Part shown: positions 1 through 33,907 of the stretch, piece by piece
Position numbering within the stretch: position 1 is the first letter of the stretch
Layout of the letters: each line of letters starts with the position of its first letter
Assembly (NCBI GenBank): GCA_032718475.1
Contig: JAUCBJ010001326.1
Span: 1 to 35,329, forward strand
Direction: 5' to 3'
Source of the DNA: Nemertoderma westbladi
Taxonomy: Eukaryota > Animalia > Xenacoelomorpha
DNA: 35,329 nt
Made by a program: the position numbers and the translations under genes
The notes under the pieces: generated by a model
Told to the model about the DNA's origin: nothing
The model's database searches: none
Seen by the model: only the letters and a program-made list of their open reading frames with translations

Positions 1-671
1 GTTTTATACTGCTATTTACTGTCAGTTCTTCATAATATGGTTGATGAATTATTATATTTGGAATAACGATAAATAACCCCGCAACCCAATATTCTTGATA
101 TACCGAAGGTAAGAGAGAAAGGTTACCAATAACGATTGTGACTTATGTTAAAGTGGTTTGAAGTGAATCTAATGTTATTTGATAGACCCTACATGAGTCA
201 GCCTGTGTTCCTTTTATATGTGACTAAAATCAGTGAAGATTGGCAGATTAGTGTGCAGTATTGTGCAGCATTGTGTATGAGTGAGTCTGTTAAAGAAGCA
301 ATTCCTAAAGAATGCGCCATATATGTGAATTATAATTAAGCCATATCGTTGTGAGTAGTTTAAGTCATAACTCTGTTTATATAGATAAAGCGCCACGTCC
401 TAAAGGAACTGTTAATATTACCGAAGGTGAATAATATTGTCAGAGATTATATAATACTGTCAGTCGAATAATACATTAGGCTTACATAGCAATAAAATTA
501 AACCGTCGAACCCAATCTCCCGGGAATATCCAGCGGGTGAATGGTCGCGCACGGATTGGTTTCGACTAGTGTAGTGAATCAAATACTTGTCATAGACTAA
601 AAGCAGATTTAATATCTAGAAGACATCTTAATTTGGTGGGTTAAACTGCCAAAGGTCTGAAAGCGCGAACA
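1..671 (+). mobile_element. LTR of BEL/Pao family A (3' part; runs off the left window edge), inserted in opposite orientation into family A gag
   Basis: Near-identical reverse complement of 5622-~6290. Ends precisely in ...GCGCGAACA (CA terminus) at 671. AATAAA at 491-496. Confidence 0.8.
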
Positions 672-3372: not shown

Positions 3373-3454
3373 GACTATGTATACCGTTGAATGTCTACTG
3401 CTGTATTACAGTCTGAGTAAGTCTAGTAACTCAGTATTAACTGCTAGCCTAGTC

Positions 3455-6844: not shown

Positions 6845-8292
6845 AGAGGGCGCCACATGAGAAGTTGAAGGGGGTATCTAGGCGTAGTAGAATAGATCGT
6901 GTAGGCCGCACGAACTGGTCTACTGTCGCGCATAGCCGGTGGTGCAGAGTTAGAGCATTGTCACAGAGCCTGAAAGTTGTCTGGTAGGAAACTAGTACAC
7001 GAGTAAGAAAATTGTAGCTAGTTTTCACTGTAGACAAGTAGTGATGAATTACTTACATAGTAGTTGAGTAGTAGGTAGAGTAATAGCACGTTAGTTGAGG
7101 TTGGGTAGTGAACACAGCACTGAAGAATCAGGGGTAAATTGGCACATAAAAGGGAATATTCGTACGAAACATTGGCAGAACGCAGATAGGAGGTAGGCCA
7201 TCACTGATTTAAACTAATTAAGACCATGTGGTCCTGGATGACGTGGGGACAGTAGAGGACGATGGTGGGACAAGAAAGGGGTCAGGAGGGTCGAGTAGAA
7301 CTATATTGCTGCATTTAGTGGTGCTGAACGGAGATATTTTTCTGTTTGACCTAGCGACCTATGGTAAGAAGACCGGGCCAAAGTTGAACCTCCTACCGGA
7401 TGCGACGCAGAAGCTAGTAAGGCCAAAGACAAAGATCGAGATTGGATCGGTGATACGTGATGACGTGGAGAGGATTATTGGACTGGGTACCCCGAATCTT
7501 CTGGACATGCAGGTAGTCTACATGGCTATGACGAAACCGGATGGATTAGGATTGGTGGATAACACGGGACAATAGGGAGCCGTGGTGGTGGGTCAGTTGA
7601 TGGCCACAAGCCGATGGTGTGGAACAAGTTCCGAGAGGAATATGGTGTGGAACTTGCGAATTCACTCAAGTCGGGGGCGAGACAGGGAGAGACGAGTTAT
7701 ATCACTTCCGAAAGGGGGGGGGGGGGGGGGTTAAGACACGTCGTGTAGACGAATACATAATATATAATATACGTACTATAGTCAGGTACAACCGTTTTCC
7801 AATTAGCTACTGGGACTGGGGACTAATTGACTAGAACGGGAGGATGAGACATTAGACGGATCCAATTTCTCAAGTGCGGCCGCACGAATGAGAATGTGGG
7901 AGCCTGACAGGAGCTAACGGAGAGTGAGAGCAAAGGGGGTTGAGTATTGGGGAAGTATGGAAGGGAAGGTAGGAGAGTTCAAAGGGGAAACTAAGGAGTG
8001 CGAGGTCCAACTGTGTGGAGCGAGCAGAGAGGAGGATGAGTCCTATGGGACTAGTGAGAGAGGAACACGGACGACAGAGTCCGAGACACAAAATTGTGTG
8101 AGGAGTGAGGGCGATCGTCTAAAAAATAGAGACGCCAGGTGCCTTGGTACAGCTTAGCTCGCAGATGTACCAAGGATGGGTAGTCAAAACAGACCCATGG
8201 GGGCAAGCCTGGAAAGCTGACCCCGAGAAGAAAATTCCACCCCACATCCAATACTAGATTGGATTCCAGCAGAATTGAAGCGCACTTAAGGT
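6845..8292 (+). mobile_element. Internally deleted remnant of a diverged family B element (pre-ORF2 region, exonuclease fragment, partial 3' LTR)
   Basis: Colinear similarity: 6845-7225 to 28545-29015, 7228-7685 to 29431-29900, and 7750-8292 to 31755-32297. Confidence 0.85.
7228..7700 (+). pseudogene. Fragment of the family B ORF2 DEDDy-like exonuclease domain
   Basis: VLDDVGTVEDD...ILLHL...DIFLFDL.TYGKK..PKLN.LP...IGSVIRDDVERIIGL.TPN.LDMQ aligns to the translation of 29431-29880. Stop at 7573-7575. Confidence 0.8.
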
Positions 8293-8537: not shown

Positions 8538-8940
8538 TTAACTCAACATTAATATTTTCAGTGCCTTGATCAGCTTCAGTTTTTGAATAGCTGCCATAAA
8601 ATACGTTGCTATGAAAAATGGGTCATTATTTGTCGATCCGCATTCTAGCCAAATTATTTTCCTTGAATCACCATCTATGCACCCATGTACACAAAGCCCG
8701 AATGATTTAAGTTTGTCCCAGCCATCTATGTGATATATGAAATTTGGGCCTGGGGCATAAAAAGTTCGTCGCACAAGCTTGTTCTTAATCCTACCCCGTA
8801 CTGAATCGCCATCAAGGAAATTTAGAATTAGAGAAACTATTTCTTGTGGGATGTACAGACTATGATCTTTCAAAAGCATATTTTTTAATCGACGATAACC
8901 CAAATCTGGATTTTCTTTAATAAGATCAATGACATCTGGA
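8538..8940 (-). pseudogene. IS3EU-type (IS3/IS481-like integrase core) DNA transposase fragment
   Basis: GYRRL...LD...RR.FYAPGPNFIYHIDGWDKLKSFGLCVHGCIDGDSRKIIWL...TNNDP is the characteristic signature. Truncated before the rest of the DDE core. Confidence 0.8.
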
Positions 8941-9045
8941 AGAATATCAAAATGGAAGCATTAGTGGCATCCAATCCATCTTACGTCTAATTGTGCGTGT
9001 AGACATAGCAACACCAATATTTGCCAATAATCTATGCATTTCGTT

Positions 9046-10649: not shown

Positions 10650-11955
10650 TTAGCTTACACAACTAACCTCGCTCCGTATAGCTTACCCAACAAACCTCTC
10701 TCAGAGTAGCTTACCCAACAAACCTATCTCGGGGTAGCTTACCCAATAAACATCGCTCCGGGTAGCTTACCCAACAAACCTCGCTCCAGGTAGCTTACCC
10801 AAAACACCTCGCTCCGGGTAGCTTACCCAACAAACCTCGCTCCGTGTAGCTTACCCAACAAACCTCGCTCCGGGTAGTTACCCAACAAACTTCGCTCCGG
10901 GAAGCTTACCTAACAATAACAAATCTCCCTCCATCCAGGTAGATTACCCACAAACCTCTCTCGGGGTAGCTTACCCAACAAACCACGCCCCGGGTAGCTT
11001 ACCCAACAAACCTCGCTCTGGGTAGCTTACCCAACAAACCTCGATCCGGGTAGCTTACCCAACAAACCTCGCTCGGTGTAGCTTACCCAACAAACCTAGC
11101 TCCGGGTAGCTTACCCAACAAACCTCGCTCTGGGTAGCTTACCCAACAATCCTCGCTCCAGGTAGCTTACCCAACAAACCTCTCTCAGGGTAACTTACAC
11201 AACAAACCTCTCTCAGGGTAGCTTACCCAAAAAACCTAGCTCCCGGTAACTTACCCAACAAACCTCTCTCGGGGTACCTTACCCAATAAACATCGCTCCG
11301 TGGAGCTTACCCAACAAACCTCGCTCCGTGGAGCTTACCCAACAAACTTCGCTCCGGGAAGCTTGCCTAACAAACCTCCCTCCATTCAGGTAGCTTACCC
11401 ACAAACTTCTCTCGGGGTAGCTTACCCAACAAACCTCGCTCTGGGTAGCTTACCCAACAAACCTCGCTCCGGGTAGCTTACCCAACAAACCACGCTCCGG
11501 GTAGCTTACCCAACAAACCTCGCTCTGGGTAGCTAACCCAACAAACTTCGCTGTGGGTAGCTTACCCAACAAACCTCGCTCTGGGTAGTTTACCCAACAA
11601 ACTTCGCGCCGGGTAGCTTACGCAACATACCTCGCTCCGGGTAGCTTACCCAAAAAACCTCGCTCTGGGTAGCTTACCCAACAAACCTCGCTCCGGGTAG
11701 CTTACCCAACAAACCTCGCTATGGGTAGCTTACCCAATAATCCTCGCTCCGGGTAGCTTACCCAACAAACCTCGCTATGGGTAGCTTACCCAATAATCCT
11801 CGCTCCAGGTAGCTTACCCAACAAACCTCGCTATGGGTAGCTTACCCAATAATCCTCGCTCCGGGTAGCTTACCAAACAAACCTTGCTCTTGATAGCGTT
11901 CCCAACAAACCTCGCTCATGGAACAAACCTCGCTCCAGATAGCTTACCCAACAAA
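10650..11955. repeat. 28-bp tandem satellite (~45 copies)
   Basis: Unit GGGTAGCTTACCCAACAAACCTCGCTCC with a near-palindromic GGGTA-GCT-TACCC core. Confidence 0.95.
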
Positions 11956-14309: not shown

Positions 14310-17300
14310 GGTTGTGAAAATTCATAACGGGAGGTGAAAAGGCAATCAATAGCGGGTTGGGAAAAGGATATAACTGGAGGTGAAAATTAATAACGGGAGG
14401 TGAAAAGGCAATCAATAGCGGGTTGGGAAAAGGATATAACTAGAGGTGAAAATTAATAACTGGAGGTGAAAAGGCAATCAATAGCGGGTTGGGGAAAAGT
14501 TTAAGTATCGTTTGCTTTATTGGCATTTAAATTGTAATTCCATTAAATATAATATAATTCAGGACCTGCTTTTGCTTTTACATATTTTAGTTTAATTTTA
14601 TTTACAGTATCTATTTTTAATATTGATAGTTAATATACTAAGGGCCTACGGTAATTTAAATTAAAAAAATGTATAGGGCCTCGTATTTTCAGATACGGTG
14701 GGGGGTTCAATGCTGTGCAGTGCTTTAACATTTCATCTTAAGAGAAAATTAATAACGGGAGGTGAAAAGGCAATCAATAGCGGGTGGGGAAAAGGATATA
14801 ACTGGAGGTGAAAATTAATAACTGGAGGTGAAAAGGCAATCAATAGCGGGTGGGGAAAAGGATATAATGGAGGGTGAAAATTAATAACGGGAGGTGAAAA
14901 GGCAATCAATAGCGGGTGGGGAAAAGGATATATCGGGGGGTGAAAATTAATAACGGGAGGTGAAAAGGCAATCAATAGCGGGTTGGGGAAAAGGATATAA
15001 CGGGAGGTGAAAATTAATAACGGGAGGTGAAAAGGCAATCAATAGCGGGTTGGGAAAAAGGATATAACTAGAGGTGAAAATTAATAACTGGAGGTGAAAA
15101 GGCAATCAATAGCGGGTGGGGAAAAGGATATAACTGGGGGTGAAAATTAATAACGGGAGGTGAAAAGGCAATCAATAGCGGGTTGGGAAAAAGGATATAA
15201 CTAGAGGTGAAAATTAATAACTGGAGGTGAAAAGGCAATCAATAGCGGGTGGGGAAAAGGATATAATGGAGGGTGAAAATTAATAACGGGAGGTGAAAAG
15301 GCAATCAACAGCGGGTGGGGAAAAGGCAATAACTGGAGGTGAAAAGGCAATCAATAGCGGGTTGGGAAAAAGGATATAACTAGAGGTGAAAATTAATAAC
15401 GGGAGGTGAAAAGGCAATCAATAGCGGGTTGGGAAAAAGGATATAACTAGAGGTGAAAATTAATAACTGGAGGTGAAAAGGCAATCAATAGCGGGTGGGG
15501 AAAAGGATATAACTGGAGGTGAAAATTAATAACGGGAGGTGAAAAGGAAATCAATAGCGGGTTGGGGAAAAGGATATAACGGAGGGTGAAAATTAATAAC
15601 GGGAGGTGAAAAGGCAATCAACAGCGGGTGGGGAAAAGGCAATAACTGGAGGTGAAAAGGCAATCAATAGCGGGTTGGGAAAAAGGATATAACTAGAGGT
15701 GAAAATTAATAACGGGAGGTGAAAAGGCAATCAATAGCGGGTTGGGAAAAAGGATATAACTAGAGGTGAAAATTAATAACTGGAGGTGAAAAGGCAATCA
15801 ATAGCGGGTGGGGAAAAGGATATAATGGGGGGTGAAAAGGCAATCAATAGCGGGTTGGGAAAAAGGATATAACTAGAGGTGAAAATTAATAACGGGAGGT
15901 GAAAAGGCAATCAATAGCGGGTTGGGAAAAAGGATATAACTAGAGGTGAAAATTAATAACTGGAGGTGAAAAGGCAATCAATAGCGGGTGGGGAAAAGGA
16001 TATAACTGGAGGTGAAAAGGCAATCAATAGTAGGTGGGGAAAAGGATATAACTGGAGATGAAAATTAATAACTGGAGGTGAAAAGGCAATCAATAGAGGG
16101 TGGGGAAAAGGATATAACGGGGGGTGAAAATTAATAACGGGAGGTGAAAAGGCAATCAACAGCGGGTTGGGGAAAAGGATATAACTGGAGGTGAAAAGGC
16201 AATCAATAGTAGGTGGGGAAAAGGATATAACTGGAGATGAAAATTAATAACTGGAGGTGAAAAGGCAATCAATAGAGGGTGGGGAAAAGGATATAATGGG
16301 GGGTGAAAATTAATAACGGGAGGTGAAAAGGCAATCAATAGTGGGTGGGGAAAAGCATATAACTGGATGTGAAAATTAATAACTGGAGGTGAAAAGGCAA
16401 TCAATAGCGGGTGGGGAAAAGGATATAACGGGGGGTGAAAAGGCAATCAATAGCAGGTGGGGAAAAGGATATAACTAGAGGTGAAAATTAATAACGGGAG
16501 GTGAAAAGGCAATCAACAGCGGGTGGGGAAAAGGAAATAACTGGAGGTGAAAAGGCAATCAATAGCGGGTTGGGAAAAGGATATAACGGGGGGTGAAAAT
16601 TAATAACTGGAGGTGAAAAGGCAATCAATAGCGGGTGGGGAAAAGGATATAACGGGGGGTGAAAATTAATAACTGGAGGTGAAAAGGCAATCAATAGCGG
16701 GTGGGGAAAAGGATATAATGGAGGGTGAAAATTAATAACGGGAGGTGAAAAGGCAATCAACAGCGGGTGGGGAAAAGGAAATAACTGGAGGTGAAAAGGC
16801 AATCAATAGCGGGTTGGGAAAAGGATATAATGGAGGGTGAAAATTAATAACGGGAGGTGAAAAGGCAATCAACAGCGGGTTGGGGAAAAGGAAATAACTG
16901 GAGGAGAAAAGGCAATCAATAGCGGGTGGGGAAAAGGATATAATGGAGGGTGAAAATTAATAACGGGAGGTGAAAAGGCAATCAACAGCGGGTTGGGGAA
17001 AAGGAAATAACTGGAGGTGAAAAGGCAATCAATAGCGGGTGGGGAAAAGGATATAACGGGGGGTGAAAATTAATAACTGGAGGTGAAAAGGCAATCAATA
17101 GCGGGTGGGGAAAAGGATATAATGGAGGGTGAAAATTAATAACTGGAGGTGAAAAGGCAATCAATAGCGGGTGGGGAAAAGGATATAATGGAGGGTGAAA
17201 ATTAATAACGGGAGGTGAAAAGGCAATCAACAGCGGGTGGGGAAAAGGAAATAACTGGAGGTGAAAAGGCAATCAATAGCGGGTTGGGAAAAGGATATAA

Positions 17301-20147
17301 CTAGAGGTGAAAATTAATAACGGGAGGTGAAAAGGCAATCAACAGCGGGTGGGGAAAAGGAAATAACTGGAGGTGAAAAGGCAATCAATAGCGGGTGGGG
17401 AAAAGGATATAACGGGGGGTGAAAATTAATAACTGGAGGTGAAAAGGCAATCAATAGCGGGTGGGGAAAAGGATATAATGGAGGGTGAAAATTAATAACG
17501 GGAGGTGAAAAGGCAATCAACAGCGGGTGGGGAAAAGGAAATAACTGGAGGTGAAAAGGCAATCAATAGCGGGTTGGGAAAAGGATATAATGGAGGGTGA
17601 AAATTAATAACGGGAGGTGAAAAGGCAATCAACAGCGGGTTGGGGAAAAGGAAATAACTGGAGGAGAAAAGGCAATCAATAGCGGGTGGGGAAAAGGATA
17701 TAATGGAGGGTGAAAATTAATAACGGGAGGTGAAAAGGCAATCAACAGCGGGTTGGGGAAAAGGAAATAACTGGAGGAGAAAAGGCAATCAATAGCGGGT
17801 GGGGAAAAGGATATAACTAGAGGTGAAAATTAATAACTGGAGGTGAAAAGGCAATCAATAGCGGGTGGGGAAAAGGATATAATGGAGGGTGAAAATTAAT
17901 AACGGGAGGTGAAAAGGCAATCAACAGCGGGTTGGGGAAAAGGAAATAACTGGAGGAGAAAAGGCAATCAATAGCGGGTGGGGAAAAGGATATAACTAGA
18001 GGTGAAAATTAATAACTGGAGGTGAAAAGGCAATCAATAGCGGGTGGGGAAAAGGATATAATGGAGGGTGAAAATTAATAACGGGAGGTGAAAAGGCAAT
18101 CAATAGCGGGTTGGGAAAAGGATATAACTAGAGGTGAAAATTAATAACTGGAGGTGAAAAGGCAATCAATAGCGGGTGGGGAAAAGGATATAACTGGGGG
18201 TGAAAATTAATAACGGGAGGTGAAAAGGCAATCAATAGCGGGTGGGGAAAAGGATATAACTGGGGGTGAAAATTAATAACGGGAGGTGAAAAGGCAATCA
18301 ATAGCGGGTTGGGAAAAAGGATATAACTAGAGGTGAAAATTAATAACTGGAGGTGAAAAGGCAATCAATAGCGGGTGGGGAAAATGATATAACTGGGGGT
18401 GAAAATTAATAACGGGAGGTGAAAAGGCAATCAATAGCGGGTTGGGAAAAAGGATATAACTAGAGGTGAAAATTAATAACTGGAGGTGAAAAGGCAATCA
18501 ATAGCGGGTGGGGAAAAGGATATAACTGGGGGTGAAAATTAATAACGGGAGGTGAAAAGGCAATCAATAGCGGGTTGGGAAAAAGGATATAACTAGAGGT
18601 GAAAATTAATAACTGGAGGTGAAAAGGCAATCAATAGCGGGTGGGGAAAAGGATATAATGGAGGGTGAAAATTAATAACGGGAGGTGAAAAGGAAATCAA
18701 TAGCGGGTGGGGAAAAGGATATAACTAGAGGTGAAAATTAATAACTGGAGGTGAAAAGGCAATCAATAGCGGGTGGGGAAAAGGATATAACTGGAGGTGA
18801 AAAGGCAATCAATAGCGGGTTGGGAAAAAGGATATAACTAGAGGTGAAAATTAATAACGGGAGGTGAAAAGGCAATCAATAGCGGGTTGGGAAAAAGGAT
18901 ATAACTAGAGGTGAAAATTAATAACTGGAGGTGAAAAGGCAATCAATAGCGGGTGGGGAAAAGGATATAATGGGGGGTGAAAATTAATAACGGGAGGTGA
19001 AAAGGCAATCAATAGCGGGTGGGGAAAAGGAAATAACTGGAGGTGAAAAGGCAATCAATAGCGGGTGGGGAAAAGGATATAACTAGAGGTGAAAATTAAT
19101 AACTGGAGGTGAAAAGGCAATCAACAGCGGGTGGGGAAAAGGAAATAACTGGAGGTGAAAAGGCAATCAATAGCGGGTGGGGAAAAGGATATAACTAGAG
19201 GTGAAAATTAATAACTGGAGGTGAAAAGGCAATCAATAGCTGGTTGGGGAAAAGGATATAACAGTAGGTGAAAAGGCAATCAATAGCGGGTGGGGAAAAG
19301 GATATAATGGAGGGTGAAAATTAATAACGGGAGGTGAAAAGGCAATCAACAGCGGGTGGGGAAAAGGAAATAACTGGAGGTGAAAAGGCAATCAATAGCG
19401 GGTTGGGGAAAAGGATATAACGGGAGGTGAAAATTAATAACGGGAGGTGAAAAGGCAATCAATAGCGGGTTGGGAAAAAGGATATAACTAGAGGTGAAAA
19501 TTAATAACTGGAGGTGAAAAGGCAATCAATAGCGGGTGGGGAAAAGGATATAATGGAGGGTGAAAATTAATAACGGGAGGTGAAAAGGCAATCAACAGCG
19601 GGTGGGGAAAAGGAAATAACTGGAGGTGAAAAGGCAATCAATAGCGGGTGGGGAAAAGGATATAACTAGAGGTGAAAATTAATAACTGGAGGTGAAAAGG
19701 CAATCAATAGCGGGTGGGAAAAAGGATATAACGGGGGGTGAAAAGGCAATCAATAGCGGGTGGGGAAAAGGATATAACTGGGGGTGAAAAGGCAATCAAT
19801 AGCGGGTGGGGAAAAGGATATAACTAGAGGTGAAAATTAATAACTGGAGGTGAAAAGGCAATCAATAGCGGGTGGGGAAAAGGATATAACAGTAGGTGAA
19901 AAGGCAATCAATAGCGGGTGGGGAAAAGGATATAACGGGAGGTGAAAATTAATAACGGGAGGTGAAAAGGCAATCAATAGCGGGTTGGGGAAAAGGATAT
20001 AATGGGGGGAGAAAATTAATAACGGGAGGTGAAAAGGCAATCAATAGCGGGTGGGGAAAAGGATATAACGGGAGGTGAAAATTAATAACGGGAGGTGAAA
20101 AGGCAATCAATAGCGGGTTGGGGAAAAGGATATAACTGGAGGTGAAA
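14310..20147. repeat. 66-bp (46+20) purine-rich satellite array, ~5.6 kb, interrupted at ~14500-14743
   Basis: Unit AGGTGAAAAGGCAATCAATAGCGGGTGGGGAAAAGGATATAACTAG + AGGTGAAAATTAATAACTGG, with 46-, 66/67- and 86-bp variants. Confidence 0.97.
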
Positions 20148-21142
20148 GAGAGAGTAAGGGACAGCGAGGTCCGAGAGAGAGACAGTAAGGGAGAGAGGGG
20201 TCCGAGAGTGGGATTAGAGAGAGGATCTATAAAATTGTGCGAAGAGAGTCCACAATTGTCTCAAACAGAGACGTCAGATACCTTGGTGCAACATAGCTCG
20301 CGATTGCACCAAGGAGAGGTAGCAATAACATACCCAGGGGGGCGGCCAGGAAAGCCGACCCCGAGAAAAGAACTCCACCCCACACCCGATATTAGTTTGG
20401 GTTCCAGCGGAATTGAAGCGCACTTAAGGTTGATGCTATCTTCTCACCAGGAAGATAGCATGGAGGGAGTGTAAGCGGATTCAATTCCACTTCATTACCC
20501 ACCAGAAAATGGGACCAGTGGGATTTTACCAATAAGTTGGGGATACGAGATTACCAATATTAATCTCGTCTCATAACCAACATTCGGGGGGGGGGGGGGT
20601 GACACAAGCCCCAAAGCCACAGAGAGAGGTGAGAGGTCAAACCACCTCGGAGGGAATACAGCTAGTAGAAACTAGCAGCGGGGGGGGGGGGGGGGAAACA
20701 CTCACAGGGAGTGCCAAAGTGACAATTAGTATATTAGCCAATAGCAGGGAGGGAAGCACGTGATTAGAGATAGGAAAGCATCCAATGGGTACAGAGGGCC
20801 AAGTATAGTAAGAGGTGAAATCAATATCCGTGTGTGTTAATCATATATTATCCAACATTACTGATTTACTGGTCAGTTGATTCAGTTACTCAGTTGCAGA
20901 CTGGTCATAGTTAATGACCGTCACCGCTACTAACATCAGCAATTAATCTGTGTATTTTCTGCTATTACATCTGTGTTATAACCGATTGACTGATTGTGCT
21001 ATTATTGGCGGATTATCAATATCGAGAAACAACATAAACCTTTATTGTTTTCCCCAACAGACTACGGCCAAAGCAAACTAGCACGATTGCCCAGCAGAAC
21101 GGTGACGCGTACAAAATCTAACCCGGTCGGAATCTTATAGAT
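20145..21142 (+). mobile_element. 5' LTR of element B (first ~366 bp and last ~9 bp missing)
   Basis: About 97% identical to 32011-32996 (about 29 substitutions by manual count, plus poly-G length differences). Confidence 0.93.
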
Positions 21143-21241
21143 TCCTATATATTCTTATTCTTATAGATTCCGGAATCTTATAGAGTCATTAACTACCAGC
21201 CTACCAACTAACAAACTGTGACTGCAAAGAAAGACAGAAAG

Positions 21242-23570
21242 ATGGCGGAAGAAGGAACGCCCTGATTATCAGAGGGAGAGAGAACGCCGCCGCGGACCCC
21301 AGACAACACCAACCAAATGATCCGTGAGGCCGCGACGCGATGGTATCGGCCTGCCACGCCGCATTCGCTGACGAGGGACGATCCGGTAGCCCAAGCGGAG
21401 GGCGGCCGTCAACTACGGAGGAGAGAGGGAGACGAGTCGACGCGCGACGACGATGGCGGTCGGAGTACCGAAGTCGCCAGCCAGACACAGGCTGAGGGCG
21501 ACGGACAGCCCACCCGAACGACGGTGGGGCCGACGACAGAACGACGGTGGGGCCGCCGGTACAATGCCGGACAAGGAGAGGAGGCGGAGTCGACGAAGAG
21601 GACGTCGGGACGAGTGATCGGCTACGACGGGCCTACAATGCTACCAAGAAACTGCTTAAAGAGGCCAAGGAGAGGAGAAAGGTAGACCAGCCTAAACTAT
21701 ACCAGAGGCTAGGTGAGTCGAATAAACATTTTCGCTATTTAGTCCATTTTGGACAGGGAGAACTGTCGAGTGAGAGAGCGAGGGGGGTCGCCACAGAACT
21801 GTTTGAATTGTGGCGGTCTGGGGTGATGGAGCCAGACCTAGTGTACGGCCTTACTTAGTGGATGCTAGGGGAATTAAGTTAGTGGGTTGGGTGGACCCGC
21901 ACGACGGCGAACCCGAGGTTAACCCCGAGGATTCAGTGACGTCGGTCAGCGAGAACCCCAGAAAGGGGGGGAAAGTTAGTAGGACAGAGAGGCGACAGCA
22001 TCCTCCGCAAAAGCAAGAAGGGCATTAGAGATAGATCTGTTGTGTCAATTAGACCTTGTGGCGCTGGATCAGAAGGAGTTGGGAGAGGCAACTAGACGAG
22101 GGAACCGCATTATTAGAGAAAGAGAGAGAGTTAGCAAGATAGTGTAAAGAGAGGGCCGAGAGGGTGGCAAGAAACTGTAGGGAACGGGAACAGAGAGAGA
22201 TAAACGAGCGTGAGGAGCGAGAGGCTAGAATAGAGAATGAGCGTAAAGAGCGAGAAGCGAGAGAAGTAGCGAGGGTAGAGAGGGAAACAAACGAGCGTAG
22301 AGAGCGGGAGGCGAGGGAGGCAGAATTAGCGAACCAAAGTCTGAGAGAGGATAGAGAGAGAGAGAGAGCGGGAAAGCATATGCAGGATGATATGCATACC
22401 CGGCTAAGGGGGCTTATGCAATACCAGGCGAAGAAAAAGCGCCGGTTAGAACTGGCGAAGTTGGGATTATCGGAGAATGAGGCTGGTTCGGGTAGTGTTT
22501 ACGAGGAGCTAGAAGTAATGGAAACGTTTGTTAATATCCCACTTACAGGCACCGGACGACAGACCCAGGACTGGTGTAACCGTACAGGCGGGGGGGGGGG
22601 GGGGGGGGGGTGGGGGTAATAATAATACGTTAGAAGGAATTAATATTAATAGTACCGTAGTAGACAACCCTAATCAAACCTTTGTTGCAGGAAATAATAC
22701 TTTACCCGGTAATAATAATTTTGATTTAAATGTGCAAAATAACCCAAATAATATTAATTTAAACGTGCAAAATAACCCAAATAGTAATTCTAATTTAAAC
22801 GTACAAAACAATCCAAATAATAATTCTAATTTAAACGTACAAAATAATCCAAATAATAATACTAATTTAAACGTGTCAAGTAATCCAAATAATAACCCTA
22901 ATTCTGAGCAAAATAATTTAAATAATTTAAATAAATTAGAAAATAATATTATTGATAACGGTGCAATTAATACGAACGTAGGGGAGACAGGTGGTCCGAC
23001 CAGCGAGAGCCTGCAAGGCCACGTAGTTACGCAGGGAGTAGCGGGGGTGAGTCAACCCAACGGGAGCCTGCAAGGCCACGTAGTTACGCAGGGAGTAACG
23101 GGGGTAGTCAACCCGAAGGGAGCCTGCAAGGCCACGCAGTCACACAGGAAGAGGAGGGCGTGAGTAGACCCAGCCAGAGTAGAGATAGTGCGTCGACTAG
23201 AGAGGAGCGTAGAAGCGGAGTAGGAGGTAGCGAAGTAAGAAGTGGTGAATGAGGGGGGGGGGGGGGGCTATGGGCACCCCATCACAAGAGGTTAGTGGCG
23301 AGAGGGGGGGGGGGGGGCAGAGAATGTCCCACAAGCGTCGGCGGATAATGCGCAGGGCGAGTAAGGTTAACCTCGGGACCCGGCGATGGAGAACAGTAGG
23401 GGGATTGCGAGTATCCCCAGGAGCGTCCAACCCGGCAGGGAGAGAGAGGTTGGTGCCGTGAGCGGGCGAGCGACAAGACATCGAGCCCAGTCGGAAGACA
23501 GAAGAAGAACAGTGGAGTTTATACGGGAGGTCGAAGATAGATCTGGAAGAAGATAGAAGAGAAGGGGAAC
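21242..23570 (+). pseudogene. gag: Degenerate gag of element B (N-terminal, coiled-coil and low-complexity parts only)
   Basis: ATG at 21242. Broken ORFs include VNPEDSVTSV (BEL Gag PxDSxS motif), an R/E coiled coil (22164-22460), a 36-bp Asn-rich repeat and a 57-bp repeat. Multiple stops and frameshifts. Confidence 0.7.
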
Positions 23571-23583
23571 GGTACTACTCGGG

Positions 23584-26500
23584 GTGGTACCGGTGAGGGT
23601 GATGGGAGAAAGCGGTCGATCGGTTACGACACTAATGCTGGTCGACAGCGGAGCCGCCTTCACGCTGGTGGAGAATTGGGTGGCCGAGGAGATAAGGTTA
23701 CAGACGAGGCCGAGTAGGATGGCGGTAACTACTATCTCGAGCAAGGATGAGGTCCTGGAGATGAGGACGGGACAGTGCGAGATATCAGCAATAGCACCAG
23801 GATGTGATTATGGGGCGACCATCGACCCCATACAGATAATAGAATCAATTAACATAAATGCCAGGCGACCCACTAAGATCGAGGTCGAGCAATACCGATT
23901 CCTGGACGATATCGATTTCTCGATACCGGAAGTGGACATCCCGAAGGTATCCATCATAGTGGGAATGGACTGTCCGAGAGCCCACGAGAGAGTACGGACC
24001 ATTTTCGGAGAGAACAGGCAGCGCGATCCAATGGCAATTCTCACGCCGTTCGGATGGACGCTTAGCGGCCCAATCAAAACCAAGATTCCATTCAGGATGT
24101 CGGAGACAGCGGGGTGCATGTTCGCAGGGACAATGAGGGAGATGGTGGATGAAGGAGCAGAGGAGCAGCTTATGAGGCTGCTGAAGCAAGACTCCGAAGG
24201 ATTGAAGGAGGCCGGGGTCGGAACCTCGGTAGAGGTTAAACAAGCTATAGAGAGCGTAAGGGAGTCGATGAAGTGCAAAGGGGGACGGTACACCATAGGA
24301 ATGGTGTGGAAACAACCAAAACTACCGTTGCCAGATAACAAAGCAATGGTACTCAAGAGGCTTCACTAGCTAAAGCAAACACTCAGATGGAGCCCCGAGA
24401 AGGATGAGCACATCCACAAGACAATTAAGAAATACGTCGAGAAGGGATGGGCCATGGAGTTACCGGTCGACAAACCAAACACGGACAGGACCTACTATCT
24501 GCCACTCCATGTGGCTTTAGACCCAAAGAAGGGTAAACTGCGGATGGTGGTCGACGCATCGGCCAAAACCAATGGCAAGAGCCTGAACGACTATCTGCTG
24601 GAGGGCCCCAACATCAACAACTCGGGGATAGAGGTCTTGTTGAGATTTAGAAATGGGAGGCACGCCTTCACGTGCGACATAGAAGGCATGTTCAATCAAG
24701 TCCGTGTGACGGAAGAAGACAGCGATAGTCAGTGCTTCCTGTAGTACAACGGCGACGAAGAACCGTCTGAGATACCTATGTACAAGATGGTGGTGCAAAA
24801 CATGGGGGCAAAGTCATCCTCATTTACAACGACTACGGCTGTGAGAGATACGGTAGAGGGGAAAGAGGGAGAGTATAGTTTGAAGGCGATCGACATGATT
24901 CGAAGTGATTTCTATGTAGACGATGGGATGGGATCTGGAAATACGGTTGAAGAAATACTGGAGCTATGGCGCGAGGTTCACGACATCCTAAAGGGATCCA
25001 GGTTTAACCTTACTAAGTTCCAGTCCATCTCAGAGGAATTCGTGAAAGCCATAAAAGACAGGCGACCAGAGTCGACCATGGACAACCCCACAACAGCAAA
25101 GGGGCAGGATATGGCGAACAAGAGAGTGGAGTCTCAGCAGAAGACGGTAGGGATCGTGTGGAACCGGGAGACGGACGAGTTGAAGTATCAACTGAGCCAA
25201 GAGGGTGCAGAGATCCACACTAAGCTGGCCTATGTATCGTACATAGCAAGGATATACGATCCCCTAGGCCAAGCATCCCCATTGTTAGTCACGGGGAAAC
25301 AGATACTAAAGAAAGTATACAAGTTAAAGGATGAGTGGGATACTGAGGTCCCGGAAGAAATAAGTAAACAGTGGAGTAAGTGGACGGGGAGTCTAGAGCA
25401 GATGGGGATGTACAGCATGCCACGCATGTATTTCCCGGACGGAGACATGACGGACCTGGATCTACACATGGTTTCCGATGCATCTTTGGAAGCATACGGA
25501 GCGGCACTTTATTTGGTACAGCGAAAAGGGGCTCATAAGCCCAGACTCGCATTTAGCAAAGCAAATTCGACGCCACCAGATTCAGCGTTAGTGCCAAAAC
25601 TCGAGCTGACAGCTGCAAGGTTAGGAGTAAGGGCCACAGCTTACTTGATGGATACTATACCCAACATAGTGGAGACACACTACTGGACGGACTCCATGGT
25701 GGTGCTAGGGTGGCTACATAACGAGAAGACGAGATACCCCATATTCGTCGTGAATAGTGTAAACGAGATAAGGGCGACGTCTGACCTAGAAAGGTGGCAT
25801 TACTGCCCTACCGACGACAACCCAGCAGATTTGTTATCGAGGGGCGTGGCACGCCACACTTTCTCAAAGAAGGAAGAGTTGTGGCAGCACGGGCCATACT
25901 TCATGAACGATAGATCAGCCTGGCCACCAATGAGGAAGGTGGACCTGGGCTCAGAGGAAGTAGTACCAGAAGAAGAGGGGAAAGATTCAGAAGGGGAAGA
26001 GATATACAGCCAGTTGGTGAGGGAGATCAAGGAGGTGCCACCGAAATCAGAAGAACCATGCGACAACCCGACGGATAGGTTGCTCAGTTGCAGCTCCAGC
26101 TGGTATAAGACTACGAAGTTGGTAGCATATTGGAGGGCCTACAGGGATTTCCTTAGGGGAGTTGGCAAGGATGCCAAAAGGAAACCAACCACCGATCTGG
26201 AAGGAGCGGCTAAAGCCGTAATATGATATGAGCAGAGAAAGAACTACGCCGACGAAGTGGATAGAGTTAGCAAGCAACAACACCTTTGTCAAGACAGCGA
26301 ACTCAACACGCTGTCCCCGCAGTTGAACGACGACGGGATTCTGGTGATGAATTCCAGAGTGGTGAACAACAACAGCTTAGTTATCCCACCAAAACCCATA
26401 ATAATCCCTAATAAATCACCGATAGTCCACCAGATCATATGGGACTTGCATAAGTCGATACTACATGCAGGCACGAACCAGACCCTCACAGAGATATGAA

Positions 26501-27558
26501 GGACATTCTGGATCATACAACTTAGGATGAAGGTGAAGGCAGTAGTGGGGCAGTGCCAGACCTGCCAACGGATGAGAAAGGAGAGGGCCGTACAGGAGAT
26601 GGCGCCCTTACCGGCCAATAGAGTGAGACAACACGACCCACCATTCACGCACGGCGGCGTGGACCTGTTCGGGCCGATTAAGATAAAGGTGATGCGGCAC
26701 AAGGAGAAATGCTATGGCATTATCTTCGTCTGCAACAACACAAGAGCGGTGGGAATAGAACTTGCGCAGGATGCTACGGCATCGGCATTTATTAATGCCT
26801 TAGAAAGATTTGTAAACCGCAAAGGGGGAACAATCACGGTGATATATTCAGATAATGGGACCAACTTCATGGGAGCGGAGAACGAGTTGGCCGAGGCCTT
26901 TGACATCCTAGAGGGAGACGATGTCAGGGCGGCTATGAGGAGACAGCAAATAAAGTGGGAAAGGAGGACGCCATATGCGCCATATACGTTATGATGTGTA
27001 GAGAGACTTGTCGGAAGTTCTAAGCGTTTAATGACTAAACTGAAGAACACCCACATGGTCACAGAGGACATATTAAGAACGGTGCTAGCCAAGTGCGAGG
27101 GAATCATTAAAAGCAGACCGCTATATCCGGAGAATGACGACCCAGAATCACTGGACGTGCTAACACCAGGACACTTTCTGATGGAGAGGCCGGCGACCAT
27201 CGATATGCGGGGTGTAGACCCAGATGACATACATTCCCGTCAAAGTTGGAAAGTCGCCAAGGCAATAAGTGCTGAGTATTGGAGGAGATGGGTAGTGGAA
27301 TATCTTCCGGCGTTACATAGGAGGAGTAAGTGGAGAAACACCAATAGGGAGCTGAAGAAGGGTGACTTGGTAATCGTCACTGACGACACAATTATCAATA
27401 ACCAATGGAGACTAGCGAGAGTGGTAGATACTTACCCCGACAAGGTCGGAAGAGTCCGGTTGGTGGAAGTGAGAATAGGAGGCAAGATAGGAGCCAAAGA
27501 TAGGAAGACCTACAGGAGGGCTGTAGGAAACTGCTGCCTATTGGAAGGGGCACCTTAG
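23584..27558 (+). pseudogene. pol: BEL/Pao pol (protease, RT, RNase H, integrase, C-terminal DUF5641-like region); one frame with 5 in-frame stops
   Basis: LVDSGA protease. YYLPLH, KLRMVVDASA, SLNDYLLEGPN, CDIEGMF and FYVDD RT. YDPLG, SDASLEAYG, PKLELTAA, WTDS and NPADLLSRG RNase H. H..H..CQTC, GVDLFGP, SDNGTNF and ERLV integrase. WRRWVVEYL. Confidence 0.96.
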
Positions 27559-28036
27559 AGTTTAGTCGTCCAAAATGTTGGACTGAGGGGGGTGGGAATG
27601 AGGGTGAGACGCCCTTCCCAAACAAAAATAAAAAATAATAAGCAAATAATAAAATTAAGAAGTGAGATAGTAGAAAGTTAAAAAGTAATAGTAGTAGACG
27701 TAGCACTAAGTAAGTAGTAAGGCAGCAGGCTGGGGCTCGAGGATGGGGCGGGTCTCCCGCTCACAACTTGAAATGCGGCCGAACAGTAGTACAGTACTGC
27801 CAGACTGTTTCAGTTTTAATTATTTACATCATTTCATATTTACAATAGTAGCTAGGCACCTGATTGTTGACATATCTGTATAGGTGGTGGGCGTTTATTT
27901 ACATTTTTGATAATTAAAATCAGCTGGTGATGGGTTTTTTATGATATTTGTTTGATCTGTTTTTTAAATTTGAAAGGTTTTTATACTTTAAGTAAATAAA
28001 TTTAGTTTAGTTTATTTTATTTTAACTAAGTAAGTA

Positions 28037-28377
28037 GTTAGAAGTTAGGGAGTGTGGTATAATGACATACCACGAGAGTAGCAGGGTACATAGTACCGTA
28101 GGCAGTTAGAAGTTAGGGAGTGTGGTATATTGACATACCACGAGAGTAGCAGGGTACATAGTACCGTAGGCAGTTAGAAGTTAGGGAGTGTGGTATATTG
28201 ACATACCACGAGAGTAGCAGCGTACATAGTACCGTAGGCAGTTAGAAGTTAGGGAGTGTGGTGTATTGACATACCACGAGAGTAGCAGGGTACATAGTAC
28301 CGTTGGTAGAAGTTAGAAGTTAGGGAGTGTGGTATATAAACATACCACGGGAGTAGTGGCAGGGTACATAGTACCGT
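28037..28377 (+). repeat. 68-bp tandem repeat (5 copies), each unit with two hairpins
   Basis: Units start at 28037, 28105, 28173, 28241 and 28312. Each has GTGGTAT-N6-ATACCAC and GGTAC-ATA-GTACC. Confidence 0.92.
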
Positions 28378-29091
28378 TAGAGTTAGAAGTTAGAGTTAGT
28401 AGAGTTAGTAGAAGTTGGTAGTAAGATAGTAAAGAGTATGGTATATCTATATACGTAACACTAGGTATCTAGAACACTAGAAAGCACAGTATACCATAGG
28501 AATATTAGTAGGGTACGTAGTACCATAGAGGCTGTGGGCATCGAGGGCGCCACAAAAGGGAGAGGGGGGAACGTGGGTACAGCAGGATAGACTGTGTAGG
28601 CCGCACTAGACAGACTACTGTACTGCACAGCCCATAGAGTAAGTTTAGGGTGTTTGTTACAGGGCCAGGAAGTTGCCTGGTACGAAACTTGCACAGAAAG
28701 GGAATAGCTAGTTTTCCCTGTATAGAAACTATAGGTGTTATCTGAGTAGAAATAACCCGCCATGACCGATAATAGCACACTAACAGAGAATAAAACAGTA
28801 TTAGGAGCAAATCGAACAAATTATGGTAACAGTAGGTAAAGGATTCTAGAATTATAATGAAAGTAACGGACAGAATTGTAAAATATAGAAAAAATTGGCA
28901 CTTTGGGGGACGTATACGTAAAATATAGTATAAAATTAGGATTTCTAAGAGATAGGCCATTACTGAACCATTAGTGTTCTGAGAGAGATAGGCCATCACC
29001 GAACCATACAGACCATCTTAATAACGTCACTCATCTATTTTGAGCCTTGGCAAGGCACCACTAAGTGGGTGAGCGATCGGGAGTGTTCGTA

Positions 29092-31628
29092 ATGGCGGAG
29101 AGACTTGTCAGGAAGAGAAAGACGGAAAGGAGTGGAAAGGAGATACTAGTAGACTTCACGCAAAGGCATCCGGAGGAGAAGACGGGGGGATACTACGAGC
29201 CGCTAGCGAAGGGTCACAATGCACGAGCGCTGCAGGACCACTTCAGGGAGATGCACGAGAGGCGACTGGTCGGGACCTACGGGACACCGTCGCTAGACAA
29301 CGCGATCCTCGAGCATTTCCACTACGTAGTGAAGGGAGATGAGGCGAAGTTCGGGATACCGAAGTATCTGAGGGAACCACTGAGAAAGGACTGGAGGAGG
29401 TTCGTAGAGTCCGTGAACAGGGGAGGATACATGGTCCTAGATGACGAAGGGACTGTGGAAGACGACTAGGGTTCGAGAAGAGGGTCGGCGGGGTCGGCCA
29501 GAACCATACTACTGCATTTGGCTGCACCAAAAGGGGATATATTCCTGTTCGATCTAGGAACGTATGGGAAGAAGAGCAGACCGAAATTAAACCGGTTGCC
29601 AAGGGCGGTGCAGAACCTAGTAAGGGAGAAGTCGACGATGAAGGTGGGATCGGCGATCCGCGACGATGCGGAGAGGATCATCGGACTGGAGACCCCCAAC
29701 TTCTTGGACATGCAAGCGGTCTACATGGCCATGACAGGGCCAGACAGGTTGGGATTGGTAGAGAAGACAGGACATTGCGGAGCAGTGGCGATGGGCCAAC
29801 TCATGGGGCTCGTCTGCCACAAGCCGATGGACTAGGGTAAATTCAGGGAGGAGTATGGAGCGGAGCTGGCGAACTCGCTGAAATGGGGAGCGAGGCCAGG
29901 GAAACAGGAGGTAGATCAGTTCCGAAGAGGAGTGATCAAGATATATCAGAAGAGATATATCCTATAGGAGGACTGGATAATGATAGGTTTATTAAACCTA
30001 TTCATGGCCATGGTTATCAGAAGAGAGCCAACAGCGTTTCTGCTATCAGGAGCACCTCTAAACTACAGAAGAGCCTTTAAGGTGGCCTTCGAAGGTCTGG
30101 TGGACCACCCGGGGCTGAAGGGTGAGTCAGTGTACTACGATAGCCGGCATCTAGTAGACAGAGAGGTGGATACACCATACAAGAGATGGGAGAAGCTGGA
30201 AGCGGATAGAGTCGAGGAGAAGCGACTGGAAGAAGTCGCCAGGTGAGAAAGGAGGGAAGCAGATGAGAGAGAGGCGGACATAAGGGGAGAGGATTACGGG
30301 TTCGAAGCCCAGAACTTGGACAAGCTGAGGTGGGGATCAGGGTGCTCGGGCGAATTTCTGGGGGAGGAGCTGGGATGGACAGAAGAATCGCCGAAACAGT
30401 CGACATCGGGATTGCAAGTGATGCCCATGCCAGTGGGCTCTGAGGGCGATTTCGTAAGAAAGAGACCAAGGGAGCAGGAAGGGTGGAGAGTTAGGGTGGA
30501 AAGGGGCACAGTGGATCTACCGGGATACCGGGTCTGGATCCATTCCCAGCGAGGGAGGAAGATGACGACGAGTTCGGGGAGATTCTGCCCATCGAGAGGA
30601 TCGGCCACTCAGATACGGACTGGGTAGGCGGGAGAGTGGTGACGGCCAGCGGGGCGAGGGCCTTCTGGGATAAACCCGGCAAGCGGACCTGGGTGCACAA
30701 GGAGCCGGCAATCGATTCGCGGGGAGCACCATCAGGTTGGGCGAGCAACCGGGAACGGCACCACGGGTAGTGTTTGGGGAGACCATGCCGAGGCGGGAGG
30801 AGGACGTGGATATGGATAGAGACATCAATATCCAGAAGTTTGCCTATCAATGGCTCCACAGACCTAGGAGAATGCTCGGGGCAAAAGACGACTTGGGGCG
30901 GGATGCGTTGATACATGGCTGTGATTACTGTGGGAGGCTAACTCACCAGGATAAGAGCTGTTTGTATCGATTTCAGAAGGGGACGAGTTGCCTCTACTGC
31001 CGTGAGTCGACCCATAGAATGAGAGCATGTCCGAGGCTGCACAACCGCTGCTCAAAGTGTAACTTCCGAGGGCACTATGGGCGCCAGTGCGACTGGATGG
31101 ACGATGAGGAGAAGTTTAAGATCTTCGAGGAGTGGGCTGACGTCGGCGTTATGATGCGACAGAGGATGAAGGCCCAGAAGTTCTGGTGGGGTTTCTTCAA
31201 CATCAATCCAGAAGCCCATCTGGAGATTATCAAAAGGAGACTGCCATTCACATACCAAGAGGTAGCGACAGCGGCGTCGTATGGAGGAGTCATCAACACG
31301 CAGAGGGACTTGGATAGATGGACTCCAAAAAACAGAGGCGAGTTCAGGGATTTTCTGGCGGAGCACATTGCCGCAAACGATGAAAATGATCTTGTGGGAC
31401 GCTACCAGGGGGAAGCAGGAGGGGCACTCGGAGGGGCCACCTGCAAAACATTACCGGGAGTTGATAACACCAGCGCCCAAAGAATCGACCATGGGGATTA
31501 GCATGGCGGTAATGGCGAGAATGAGGAGTCTCAGAGAGGACAAGCCAGAGGGAAGGAAGCGGCCCAGACAAGACGATGACAGGGGGAAAGCACTAAGATG
31601 GTTCCCGAAGACGGGAGGGGCGAACTAG
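29092..31628 (+). pseudogene. Extra ORF2 of element B: DEDDy-like 3'-5' exonuclease domain plus three CCHC zinc knuckles (stops and frameshifts)
   Basis: Same-frame pieces over 29092-30627 give VLDDEG (ExoI), LLHLA..IFLFDL, LP..V..L....KVGSAIRDD (ExoII), FLDMQ and QKRYIL*ED (ExoIII-like). 30737-31501 has three CX2CX4HX4C motifs. Confidence 0.7.
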
Positions 31629-31633
31629 GACTC

Positions 31634-31644
31634 AGAGGGGGAGA
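31634..31644 (+). other. Polypurine tract
   Basis: AGAGGGGGAGA immediately before the TGTG start of the 3' LTR. Confidence 0.8.
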
Positions 31645-33005
31645 TGTGGGTGTGCCTGGAAGGCACCACATGTGGAAATATATACGAACTCCTAAGTGCG
31701 AAATAATTAAGTGCAATTAGTATGTATGTATGTAAATAATCAATATAATTACAATGAATATATAATCAAAGTAAGTACTATAGTCATATATAACCTTTTC
31801 CAATTAGCTACTGGGATTGGGAACCACTTGACTACAATCGGACGAGACTTTAGATGGGTCTCACTGGCATGGTGTATACATGCATGAGACCCGACGAGAG
31901 AAAGGAGAGTGAGAACAAAGATGGGTTGAGTACGAGAAAAGTACGGAGAGGAGGTGTTGACATGCGTGGAAGTGAGAGGAGTGCAATTCAAATGTGGGGA
32001 GCGAGCAGTAAAAGAGAGAGTAAGGGACAGCGAGGTCCGAGAGAGAGACAGTAAGGGAGAGAGGGGTCCGACAGTGGGATTAGAGAGATGATCTAGAAAA
32101 TTGTGCGAAGAGAGTCCACAATTGTCTCAAACAGAGACGTCAGATACCTTGGTGCAACATAGCTCGCGATTGCACCAAGGAGAGGTAGCAATAACCCCCC
32201 CATGGGGGCGGCCAGGAAAGCCGACCCCGAGAAAAGAACTCCACCCCACACCCGATATTAGTTTGGGTTCCAGCGGAATTGAAGCACACATAAGGTTGAT
32301 GCTATCTTCTCACCAGGAAGATAGCATGGGGGGAGTGTAAGCAGATTCAATTCCACTTCATTACCCACCAGAAAATGGGACCAGTGGGATTTTACCAATA
32401 AGTTGGGGATACGAGATTACCAATATTAATCTCGTCTCATAACCAACATTGGGGGGGGGGGGGCAACACAAGCCCCAAAGCCACAGAGAGAGGTGAGAGG
32501 TCAAACCACCTTGGAGGGAATACAGCTAGTAGAAACTAGCAGCGGGGGGAAACACTCACAGGGAGTGCCAAATTGACAATTAGTATATTAGCCAATAGCG
32601 GGGAGGGAAGCACGTGATTAGAGATAGGAAAGCATCCATTGGGTACAGAGGGCCAAGTACAGTAAGAGGTGAAATCAATATCCATGTGTGTTAATCATAT
32701 ATTATCCTACATTACTGATTTACCGGTCAGTTGATTCAGTTACTCAGTTGCAGACCGGTCATAGTTAATGACCGTCACCGCTACTAACATCAGCAATTAA
32801 TCTGTGTATTTTCTGCTATTACATCTGTGTTATAACCGATTGACTAATTGTGCTATTATCGGCGGATTATCAATATCGAGAAACAACAGAAACCTTTATT
32901 GTTTTCCCCAACGGCCTACGGCCAAAGCGAACTAGCACGATTGCCCAGCAGAACGGTGACGCGTACAAAATCTAACCCGGTCGGAATCTTATAGATCCCG
33001 TCACA
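31645..33005 (+). mobile_element. 3' LTR of element B (1361 bp)
   Basis: Starts TGTG after the PPT and ends CACA. Matches the 5' LTR and the remnant at 7750-8292. The MITE-derived flank resumes at ~33006-33011. Confidence 0.88.
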
Positions 33006-33009
33006 TTGA

Positions 33010-33907
33010 GCGTCTTTTGACACTACAATTAACTAAATTTATGATGAGGAACATTGATTATGTATTGATCTGTATTTCCAGCAGCAATACCGGTTCTGCA
33101 TTCCAATCTGTATCGATTACAGTAGATTACATTTAAAATAACACTAAACTTGTAATACCGGTCAGCCGGTACTATAATACAGTAATAATTGGCAGTACAG
33201 TAGGCTACTTGAATATTGAAAATGTGTACTGGTCACCGGTAAACCCTACATACTTAATTAATGAAGTAATCTGCAATACTCAGATACTGCAATAGGCTGT
33301 GGAGACAGGGGGGAAACTGGACGAAAAACCCGCCTTGGCGAATTAATTTCCCGCCTCAATGTTAAATTCTCAATTTAGTTTTATTTTTGAGAATAATCAG
33401 CTGTTATTTGCCCTGGAGAGGGATGAATTTTTATTGCGTCTGGCGTCCAGTTCCCCCCCCCCCCCCCTCCCCCCCCCCCCCTGAGTGCTTACATACCGGG
33501 CGATATGCCGAGTATGTAATTGTAACCAGCATTTTATCTATCTTCCCCTTTATGTATTTAATTAATTGAGTTTCAAAGGAAAAACACAAGAGTCTCCGCT
33601 TTCAATTGATATAATCCACGTGTGAAATGATTGAGATTTAATGTGTATTTGAATCGCTCGAAAATCTCTCTCCATAGAAACCAAGATAAAAAATATCAGA
33701 TCACTGCGTAGTGACGTCAAATATGTAGCAGCCAATCACAGCCGATTTTCAAAATTGGCTTCCCGGGCTTACTTAAACCCGCCATTTCGACCCTTTCCAC
33801 GTGTTTTTATAAAAAAAACACACCCTGCCATTCGATTCAGGGCACCTTGTTACCACTTATTCATTTGTTTCAAGCCCAACAATTTTTTCGCTCACCAATC
33901 CTATTAC
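33010..33907. mobile_element. Right part of the dispersed palindromic TIR/MITE family (copy 2); apparent target of the element B insertion
   Basis: Homologous to 10133-10649. Both copies stop matching at ...CCTATTAC. Confidence 0.7.

Follow-up and report, generated by a model that had tools for sequence, protein, structure and literature searches.

A BEL/Pao Retrotransposon of Nemertoderma westbladi Carries a Third Gene With a Predicted WRN/EXD2-Type Exonuclease Domain and Three CCHC Zinc Knuckles

Results and Discussion

Structure of the BEL/Pao Element

Analysis of the window, a 35,329-nucleotide stretch of N. westbladi DNA (contig JAUCBJ010001326.1, assembly GCA_032718475.1), identified a decayed LTR retrotransposon of the BEL/Pao type at positions 20142–33003, with a length of at least 12.9 kb (Table 1). 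Its pol occupies a single frame with five internal stop codons and showed Pfam matches to Asp_protease_2 (E value, 2e-5), Peptidase_A17 (1.8e-36), rve (1.1e-6), and DUF5641 (7.7e-24). Because these domains stand in the order protease–RT–RNase H–integrase, together with BEL-type domains, the element was assigned to BEL/Pao, in agreement with the first-pass annotation of this locus. The coding region is flanked by LTRs whose left ends are undefined; the paired segments, 20142–21145 and 32008–32999, are 95.8% alike (30 mismatches and 12 gap bases in 1004 columns). No loci related to pol were detected among viral or metagenome contigs.

The gag region has probably been internally deleted. The two gag pieces scanned gave no Pfam match, and a knuckle scan of the region found no zinc knuckles in any frame. 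No primer-binding site, whether of the tRNA-Arg or tRNA-Gly type or of the TGG type, was seen by eye after 21188, and Rfam gave no match in 20000–33200; no tRNA was found either. The end of the 5' LTR (21130–21190) contains a short duplicated, partly palindromic segment that is absent from the 3' LTR.

Table 1. Features of the element and of its diverged second copy in the window.
Feature	Position	Strand	Remarks
Copy 2, diverged, deleted	6846–8292	+	Upstream non-coding piece, exonuclease piece (7228–7712), LTR-like tail
5' LTR, right-hand remnant	20142–21188	+	LTR match; ends GTCA near 21188; left part missing
gag region, decayed	21243–23556	+	Coiled-coil, Asn-rich, 57-bp repeats; three-frame translation
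pol	23557–27558	+	Protease, RT (YVDD), RNase H/Pao domain, integrase, DUF5641
Polypurine-tract-like run, then TG	27585–27600	+	27 nt past pol stop; candidate LTR start 27599
68-bp tandem repeat	28036–28393	+	5.2 copies; non-coding stretch ahead of the ORF
Extra ORF	29092–31628	+	About 845 codons, downstream of pol; window copy with 4 stops and 3 frameshifts
WRN/EXD2-type DEDDy exonuclease-like domain	29428–30006	+	Residues about 113–305
Three CX2CX4HX4C zinc knuckles	30920–31090	+	Starts 30920, 30989, 31049
Second polypurine-tract-like run, then TG	31634–31646	+	6 nt past ORF stop; candidate LTR start 31645
3' LTR	31645–33003	+	Left boundary uncertain; 32008–32999 matches 5' copy; GTCA end at 33003

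Two candidate polypurine tracts were found downstream of pol, at 27585–27598 and 31634–31644. A putative LTR start at 27599 would give an LTR of 5.4 kb with the extra ORF inside it, and a putative start at 31645 would give an LTR of 1.36 kb with the ORF ahead of it. Both starts are candidates, as the 5' LTR has lost its left part. The DNA upstream of copy 2 aligned unconvincingly with the stretch after pol (score 40 against a best of 38 in 100 shuffles), and the LTR start is therefore not fixed by copy 2; contig depth likewise showed no clear step at 31645. The surroundings of the two candidates (27578–27605 and 31627–31652) resemble each other, sharing the pattern GGACT..AGGGGG..TG.GGGTG, which would fit a duplication of the LTR start upon acquisition of the gene. 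The ORF had initially been assigned to the env position; it does lie downstream of pol, but it may be located inside a long 3' LTR; a coding LTR of such length would be unusual for BEL/Pao.

The remainder of the window contains other repetitive DNA. The truncated 5' LTR is adjoined by a satellite with a 66-bp unit (14314–20147, 5.8 kb), which conceals where the LTR begins on the left. Two inverted repeats, each about 670 bp long (5–671 and 5622–6288, 96% complementary), enclose a minus-strand frame of 925 codons (628–3405) that matches the BEL-type gag domain DUF1759 (E value, 4e-7); this frame is cut at the left repeat, and there is no pol between the inverted repeats. An integrase-core match (rva_4; E value, 5e-12) on the minus strand at 8538–8960 is a fragment of another element, and a 28-bp tandem array of about 45 copies occupies 10651–11917.

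The Third Gene and Its Lesions

In the window copy, the exonuclease frame runs from the ATG at 29092 to 30627 and is interrupted by stops at codons 126, 248, 292, and 385. The knuckle frame (30674–31501) is a different one, and a third frame supplies a linker piece and the ORF end at 31628. The frameshifts were located at about 30450–30550, about 30715, and about 31367. A decayed ORF of about 840 codons had been proposed by reading through the stops; the length agrees with that obtained by tiling other copies (see below), but stop read-through is insufficient to restore the ORF in the presence of three frameshifts.

No hydrophobic anchor was detected in the two main frames, where the 19-residue hydropathy maxima were 1.65 and 0.38, the former in the ExoIII helix. 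With neither a signal peptide nor a transmembrane anchor in these two frames, an env gene was rejected. The gag region (21243) and the extra ORF (29092) share the start ATGGCGGA in a similar start context.

The ORF in Other Copies

Contigs from four public runs were compared with positions 28400–31720 at a minimum likeness of 80%. In three runs (two samples, two studies), 5914, 3962, and 4114 contigs matched and 30 of 30 bins were covered, and 25 contigs matched in the fourth run, from a third study. These thousands of contigs, mostly 90–99% alike, show that the family is high-copy, although summed contig depth is not equal to copy number. Three diverged contigs start at 29085; therefore, homology begins at the ATG of the ORF.

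Nearly all of the contig depth has another letter at stop codons 248 and 292, while codons 126 and 385 lie outside the best 40 of 756 differences. A length difference at 31367–31368, present in most of the depth, opens into the frame that ends at 31628. One contig (X5 record 28) joins the exonuclease frame, the third-frame piece, and the knuckle frame in one net frame, so that this link comes from a single contig of a single run, and another (X5 record 29) continues gaplessly across two knuckles. From this tiling, based on 12 listed length differences out of 48 and 15 listed joints out of 40, we infer that the ORF forms one frame of about 845 codons in other copies. The fusion of exonuclease and knuckles reported by the first-pass annotation is likewise inferred, because none of the contigs listed spans both domains, and in the window copy the two stand in different frames; that intact copies encode one fused protein is very probable.

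A diverged copy (copy 2) is present elsewhere in the window as a decayed fragment with one stop and several deletions, and it retains 69–71% nucleotide identity in three blocks whose order is kept. In the exonuclease piece, 110 of 158 codons give the same residue in both copies, and the differences at codon positions 1, 2, and 3 number 27, 32, and 89, respectively. The resulting pN of 0.18 and pS of 0.72 give a pN/pS of 0.25 (bootstrap, 0.18–0.34), while pN exceeds pS in the other two forward frames of this piece. Among the contig differences, 24 of 35 assignable ones fall at third positions (p = 2e-5), including 12 of 15 in the knuckle frame; these belong to the best 40 of 756 differences, a best-supported and therefore non-random subset, 5 of which fell outside assignable frames. 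The comparison of copies proposed with the original observation thus shows that the ORF evolved under purifying selection and that two or more subfamilies had it as a functional coding sequence.

Linkage of the ORF to pol was observed in the window copy alone. An unrelated nested insertion, which had been named among the findings that would overturn the original claim, was rejected, since copy 2, X5 record 30, and X1 records 7–8 tie the ORF to the same LTR-like downstream DNA. Its coding state in at least two subfamilies and its association with the LTR argue against a stray insertion, and its occurrence in copy 2 and in thousands of contigs marks it as an element-borne gene.

Long poly-G runs were noted at 7714–7730, 22590–22610, 23253–23267, and 23304–23317. 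The run at 7714 is the exact deletion junction of copy 2, which suggests that deletions are linked to G-tracts, possibly also in gag.

The Exonuclease-Like Domain

The motifs on which the domain was originally recognized were all found in place: YMVLDDEG at 29428, ILLHLAAPKGDIFLFDL, KVGSAIRDD, FLDMQ, GLVCHKP, and YQKRYIL-stop-ED. The predicted catalytic residues are D117, E119, D192, Y289, and E293, the last being a Glu at the fourth acidic place, where Asp is usual.

Standard searches with the exonuclease part found no relative in Pfam, PHROGs, NCBIfam, or PDB sequences and no match in a word-indexed protein search (lengths 281–895), metagenome contigs, phage records, or the E. coli genome. 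At E ≤ 0.001, there was no sequence relative among 1.84 billion representatives. Pfam detected no helicase and no MUT7-C domain in the ORF, and a MUT-7/Nibbler orthologue was rejected for want of the latter.

Reference profiles were built from PF01612 matches in bacterial genomes and a protein search; a motif filter left out 10 of 40 loci, and 1 of 54 hits was left out because its domain was too short. The nine-sequence WRN-type seed itself had WRN, MUT-7, and EXD2 structures as its best matches. With the 62-sequence WRN-type profile, the ORF ranked first of 702 six-frame pieces of the window (16.3 bits; E value, 1.6e-4), the best unrelated piece reaching 2.6 bits, and the exonuclease piece scored 16.8 bits, whereas none of 1000 shuffles exceeded 2.5. 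Profile–profile comparison with hhalign gave a probability of 84.6, an E value of 6.9e-6, and a score of 41.7 against 21.2 for the best of 60 shuffles. It paired LDDEG with GFDTE, KVG..D192 with KVG..D (ExoII), LDM with DL, W265 with NW, and YIL-X-EDW with YAATDAW. A small WRN profile yielded an hhalign probability of only 3–5%.

The response depended on the branch of the reference set. Among size-matched profiles, the WRN-type scored 10.0 bits (reached by 0 of 1000 shuffles), the PolA −2.7 bits (reached by 203 of 1000), the RNase D −1.6 bits, and the short RNase D/NrnC-like −2.5 bits. These scores favour a placement of the putative domain nearer to the WRN/EXD2 branch than to RNase D or PolA proofreading domains. 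Of the broader WRN-exo/MUT-7/EXD/RNase D assignment made previously, the WRN/EXD2 part is consistent with the scores, and the RNase D part is not.

The motifs align with unequal confidence. The confident profile alignment covers residues 138–222 only, and ExoI and ExoIII align at low confidence. In ExoI, D117-D-E119 stands at the end of predicted strand 1 in copy 1; copy 2 has Val at E119, and in the MAFFT alignment the ExoI Glu falls at E123 rather than E119. D192 of ExoII is aligned confidently and kept in both copies, with KVG lost in copy 2. In ExoIII, Y289-x3-E293 lies beside a stop codon, and the flanking Q, Y, and W match YAATDAW. Copy 2 alone scored 0.0 bits on the profile.

Structure prediction was of limited help. 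An unguided single-sequence AlphaFold model (pLDDT 37) gave no exonuclease match and was too poor to use. A model guided by 37 WRN-type sequences reached pLDDT 71, with EXD2 as the top match (E value, 1.3e-4), followed by Trypanosoma brucei RNase D (TbRND), Exd1, Egalitarian, Nibbler, and WRN at TM-scores of 0.36–0.54; because the guiding sequences were themselves WRN-type, this circular result shows compatibility only.

It is improbable that the N-terminal half belongs to an RNA-binding accessory protein of another fold, its likeness to an exonuclease being coincidental or vestigial. Such a reading would account for the missing database match at standard thresholds and for the poor single-sequence model, but not for five colinear motifs, a branch-specific profile response, or a score far above 1000 shuffles and every other piece of the window. 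From its sequence, the domain is predicted with good confidence to have an exonuclease fold, in which the acidic residues would bind metal.

Whether the fold would be catalytic is less certain. One unlikely alternative is that it is weak or dead and serves as an RNA-binding adaptor or decoy in the manner of Egalitarian or EXD1, bringing element RNA to the oocyte or titrating piRNA-pathway partners. The non-canonical Glu as fourth acid and the Val that stands for E119 in copy 2 are in line with this, and the modelled fold would agree as well, with Exd1 and Egalitarian ranking right after EXD2 and TbRND and neither being in the guiding alignment. A study of the I factor retrotransposon, cited in the Egalitarian literature, reportedly found the localisation machinery to be shared. 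The putative catalytic residues of Egalitarian are described as dispensable (PMC13186709). On the other side, copy 1 retains D-x-E, D, and Y where they are expected, the Val of copy 2 may reflect the decay evident from its stop and deletions, and the fold-search ranks among DEDDy relatives are close at low TM-scores. Catalytic activity of the exonuclease is predicted with moderate confidence.

An RT proofreading partner acting at cDNA 3' ends, as considered in the first-pass annotation, is very improbable. The domain does sit in an RT-bearing element, and WRN and PolA-type exonuclease domains act on DNA. But the proofreading idea is weakened by the match itself, which favours WRN/EXD2 over the PolA profile that fails to score; the ORF is also unfused to pol, and CCHC knuckles suggest RNA.

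The Zinc Knuckles

The three CCHC knuckles described previously were recovered and are the only CX2CX4HX4C motifs in the six frames of the 35-kb window. The knuckle part gave a weak Pfam match to zf-CCHC_4 (E value, 0.025), and its look-alikes in the Atlas were CCHC arrays with scores below 0.9. No longer relatives of the knuckle part were found, and its C-terminal domain had no usable Atlas match. Knuckles of BEL gag are not known to have the CX2CX4HX4C spacing, and an origin as a relocated gag nucleocapsid was rejected on this account.

Proposed Function

We propose that this conserved accessory gene, separate from gag and pol, encodes a WRN/EXD2-type 3'–5' exonuclease with three CCHC knuckles. 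The protein may be translated from its own subgenomic mRNA, by analogy with the rotifer ORF3s. As in TbRND, the knuckles would hold single-stranded RNA and pass its 3' end to the active site. The trimmed RNAs would be host piRNAs or siRNAs, or their precursors, and silencing of the element would fall. An RNA 3' trimmer that weakens host small-RNA silencing of the element is our preferred, if tentative, reading of the ORF product; host small RNAs as the substrate are its least certain part, about half as probable as catalytic activity.

This reading is preferred because host members of the branch act in germline small-RNA production, because replication in most BEL/Pao elements needs no gene of this kind, and because the family reached high copy number. 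Enzymes of the MUT-7 family are described as working in germline small-RNA production (PMC11347159; PMC5622571). The rotifer study reports that a DEDDy ORF was not clearly linked to copy number or to small-RNA escape, and raises the opposite role, mut-7-like silencing (PMC5408684).

An active nuclease could also serve the replication of the element itself, trimming the 3' end of element RNA, of a tRNA primer, or of particle cDNA, with knuckles that would act like a nucleocapsid. This is possible but rather unlikely. The same domain evidence (the WRN-type profile and hhalign) fits it, and 3'-end processing of element RNA was proposed for rotifer elements (PMC5408684). The lack of a visible TGG-type primer-binding site past the 5' LTR and of knuckles in the gag of the window copy also speaks for it. 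Against it, the ORF is separate from pol, and most BEL/Pao elements replicate in its absence, gag, pol, and env being the only genes listed in the ICTV profile (PMC8742986). The lack of gag knuckles probably reflects a lesion in the window copy, because the poly-G runs in gag at 23253 and 23304 resemble that at the deletion junction of copy 2.

In its fullest form, the small-RNA counter-defence reading would describe a high-copy BEL/Pao lineage with an active exonuclease–knuckle enzyme, its D-E-D-E site non-canonical, that degrades or mis-trims piRNAs, possibly from a gene inside a 5.4-kb LTR; we regard this as doubtful. If true, the transposon would itself encode an enzyme that suppresses the piRNA pathway, and with the gene inside the LTR, solo LTRs would carry it too. 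An enzyme-type third gene under purifying selection through a large expansion would extend nuclease capture beyond rotifer retroelements, and the ORF is a concrete, assayable candidate for a transposon that fights or exploits small-RNA silencing. Similar genes may be missed elsewhere because the protein is invisible to standard databases.

Comparison With Known Systems

DEDDy ORFs downstream of pol are described in the bdelloid rotifer elements Juno, Vesta, and Terminons (PMC5408684; PMC6431247; PMC6338049), which confirms the precedent cited in the original observation. As in the rotifer ORF3, the gene described here is a separate ORF past pol in an LTR element, with likeness to a DEDDy-type 3'–5' exonuclease and without transmembrane or env features, and the function of both is putative. 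In contrast to it, Juno and Vesta are not BEL/Pao elements, and the rotifer motif is given as DEED rather than D-E-D-E. The rotifer descriptions consulted mention no triple-CCHC fusion, with a Cys-His-Cys motif in Vesta2/5 only; the comparison is one of published descriptions.

The combination of a DEDDy exonuclease with C-terminal CCHC knuckles is also found in TbRND (PDB 7c42/7c45), whose CCHC domain is reported to raise RNA binding and cleavage strongly (PMC7797062). TbRND is described as a host enzyme for mitochondrial guide RNAs that has about 350 aa and four fingers, whereas the BEL/Pao ORF encodes an 845-aa mobile-element protein with three knuckles about 300 residues past the exonuclease. 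A PDB sequence search gave no direct match between the two, and the shared architecture is probably convergent. With the WRN/EXD2/MUT-7 (Nibbler)/EXD1/Egalitarian branch (PF01612-like), the domain shares motif order and spacing and its best-scoring profile, but it differs in its identity of about 20%, several insertions, and the Glu at the fourth acidic place.

Where BEL/Pao elements have a third gene, it has been described as env-like, and env-bearing members of the Belpaoviridae share with this element the order of pol domains, the BEL-specific domains, and a third gene past pol (PMC8742986; PMC3118150). Unlike theirs, the third gene here is not env-like. The words "exonuclease" and "zinc" are absent from the main text of the BEL/Pao survey (PMC3118150), and neither a DEDDy ORF nor an exonuclease–knuckle gene in BEL/Pao was found in a literature search that left out most subscription journals and Repbase. 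Belpaoviridae are given as 4.2–10 kb long with LTRs of 0.2–1.2 kb (PMC8742986), and both the element and its LTR, whether 1.36 or 5.4 kb, lie above these ranges. DEDDy ORFs and exonuclease–CCHC combinations are thus known elsewhere, and what is new is an exonuclease-type third gene with knuckles in BEL/Pao, well supported as a gene and, as a predicted nuclease, moderately so.
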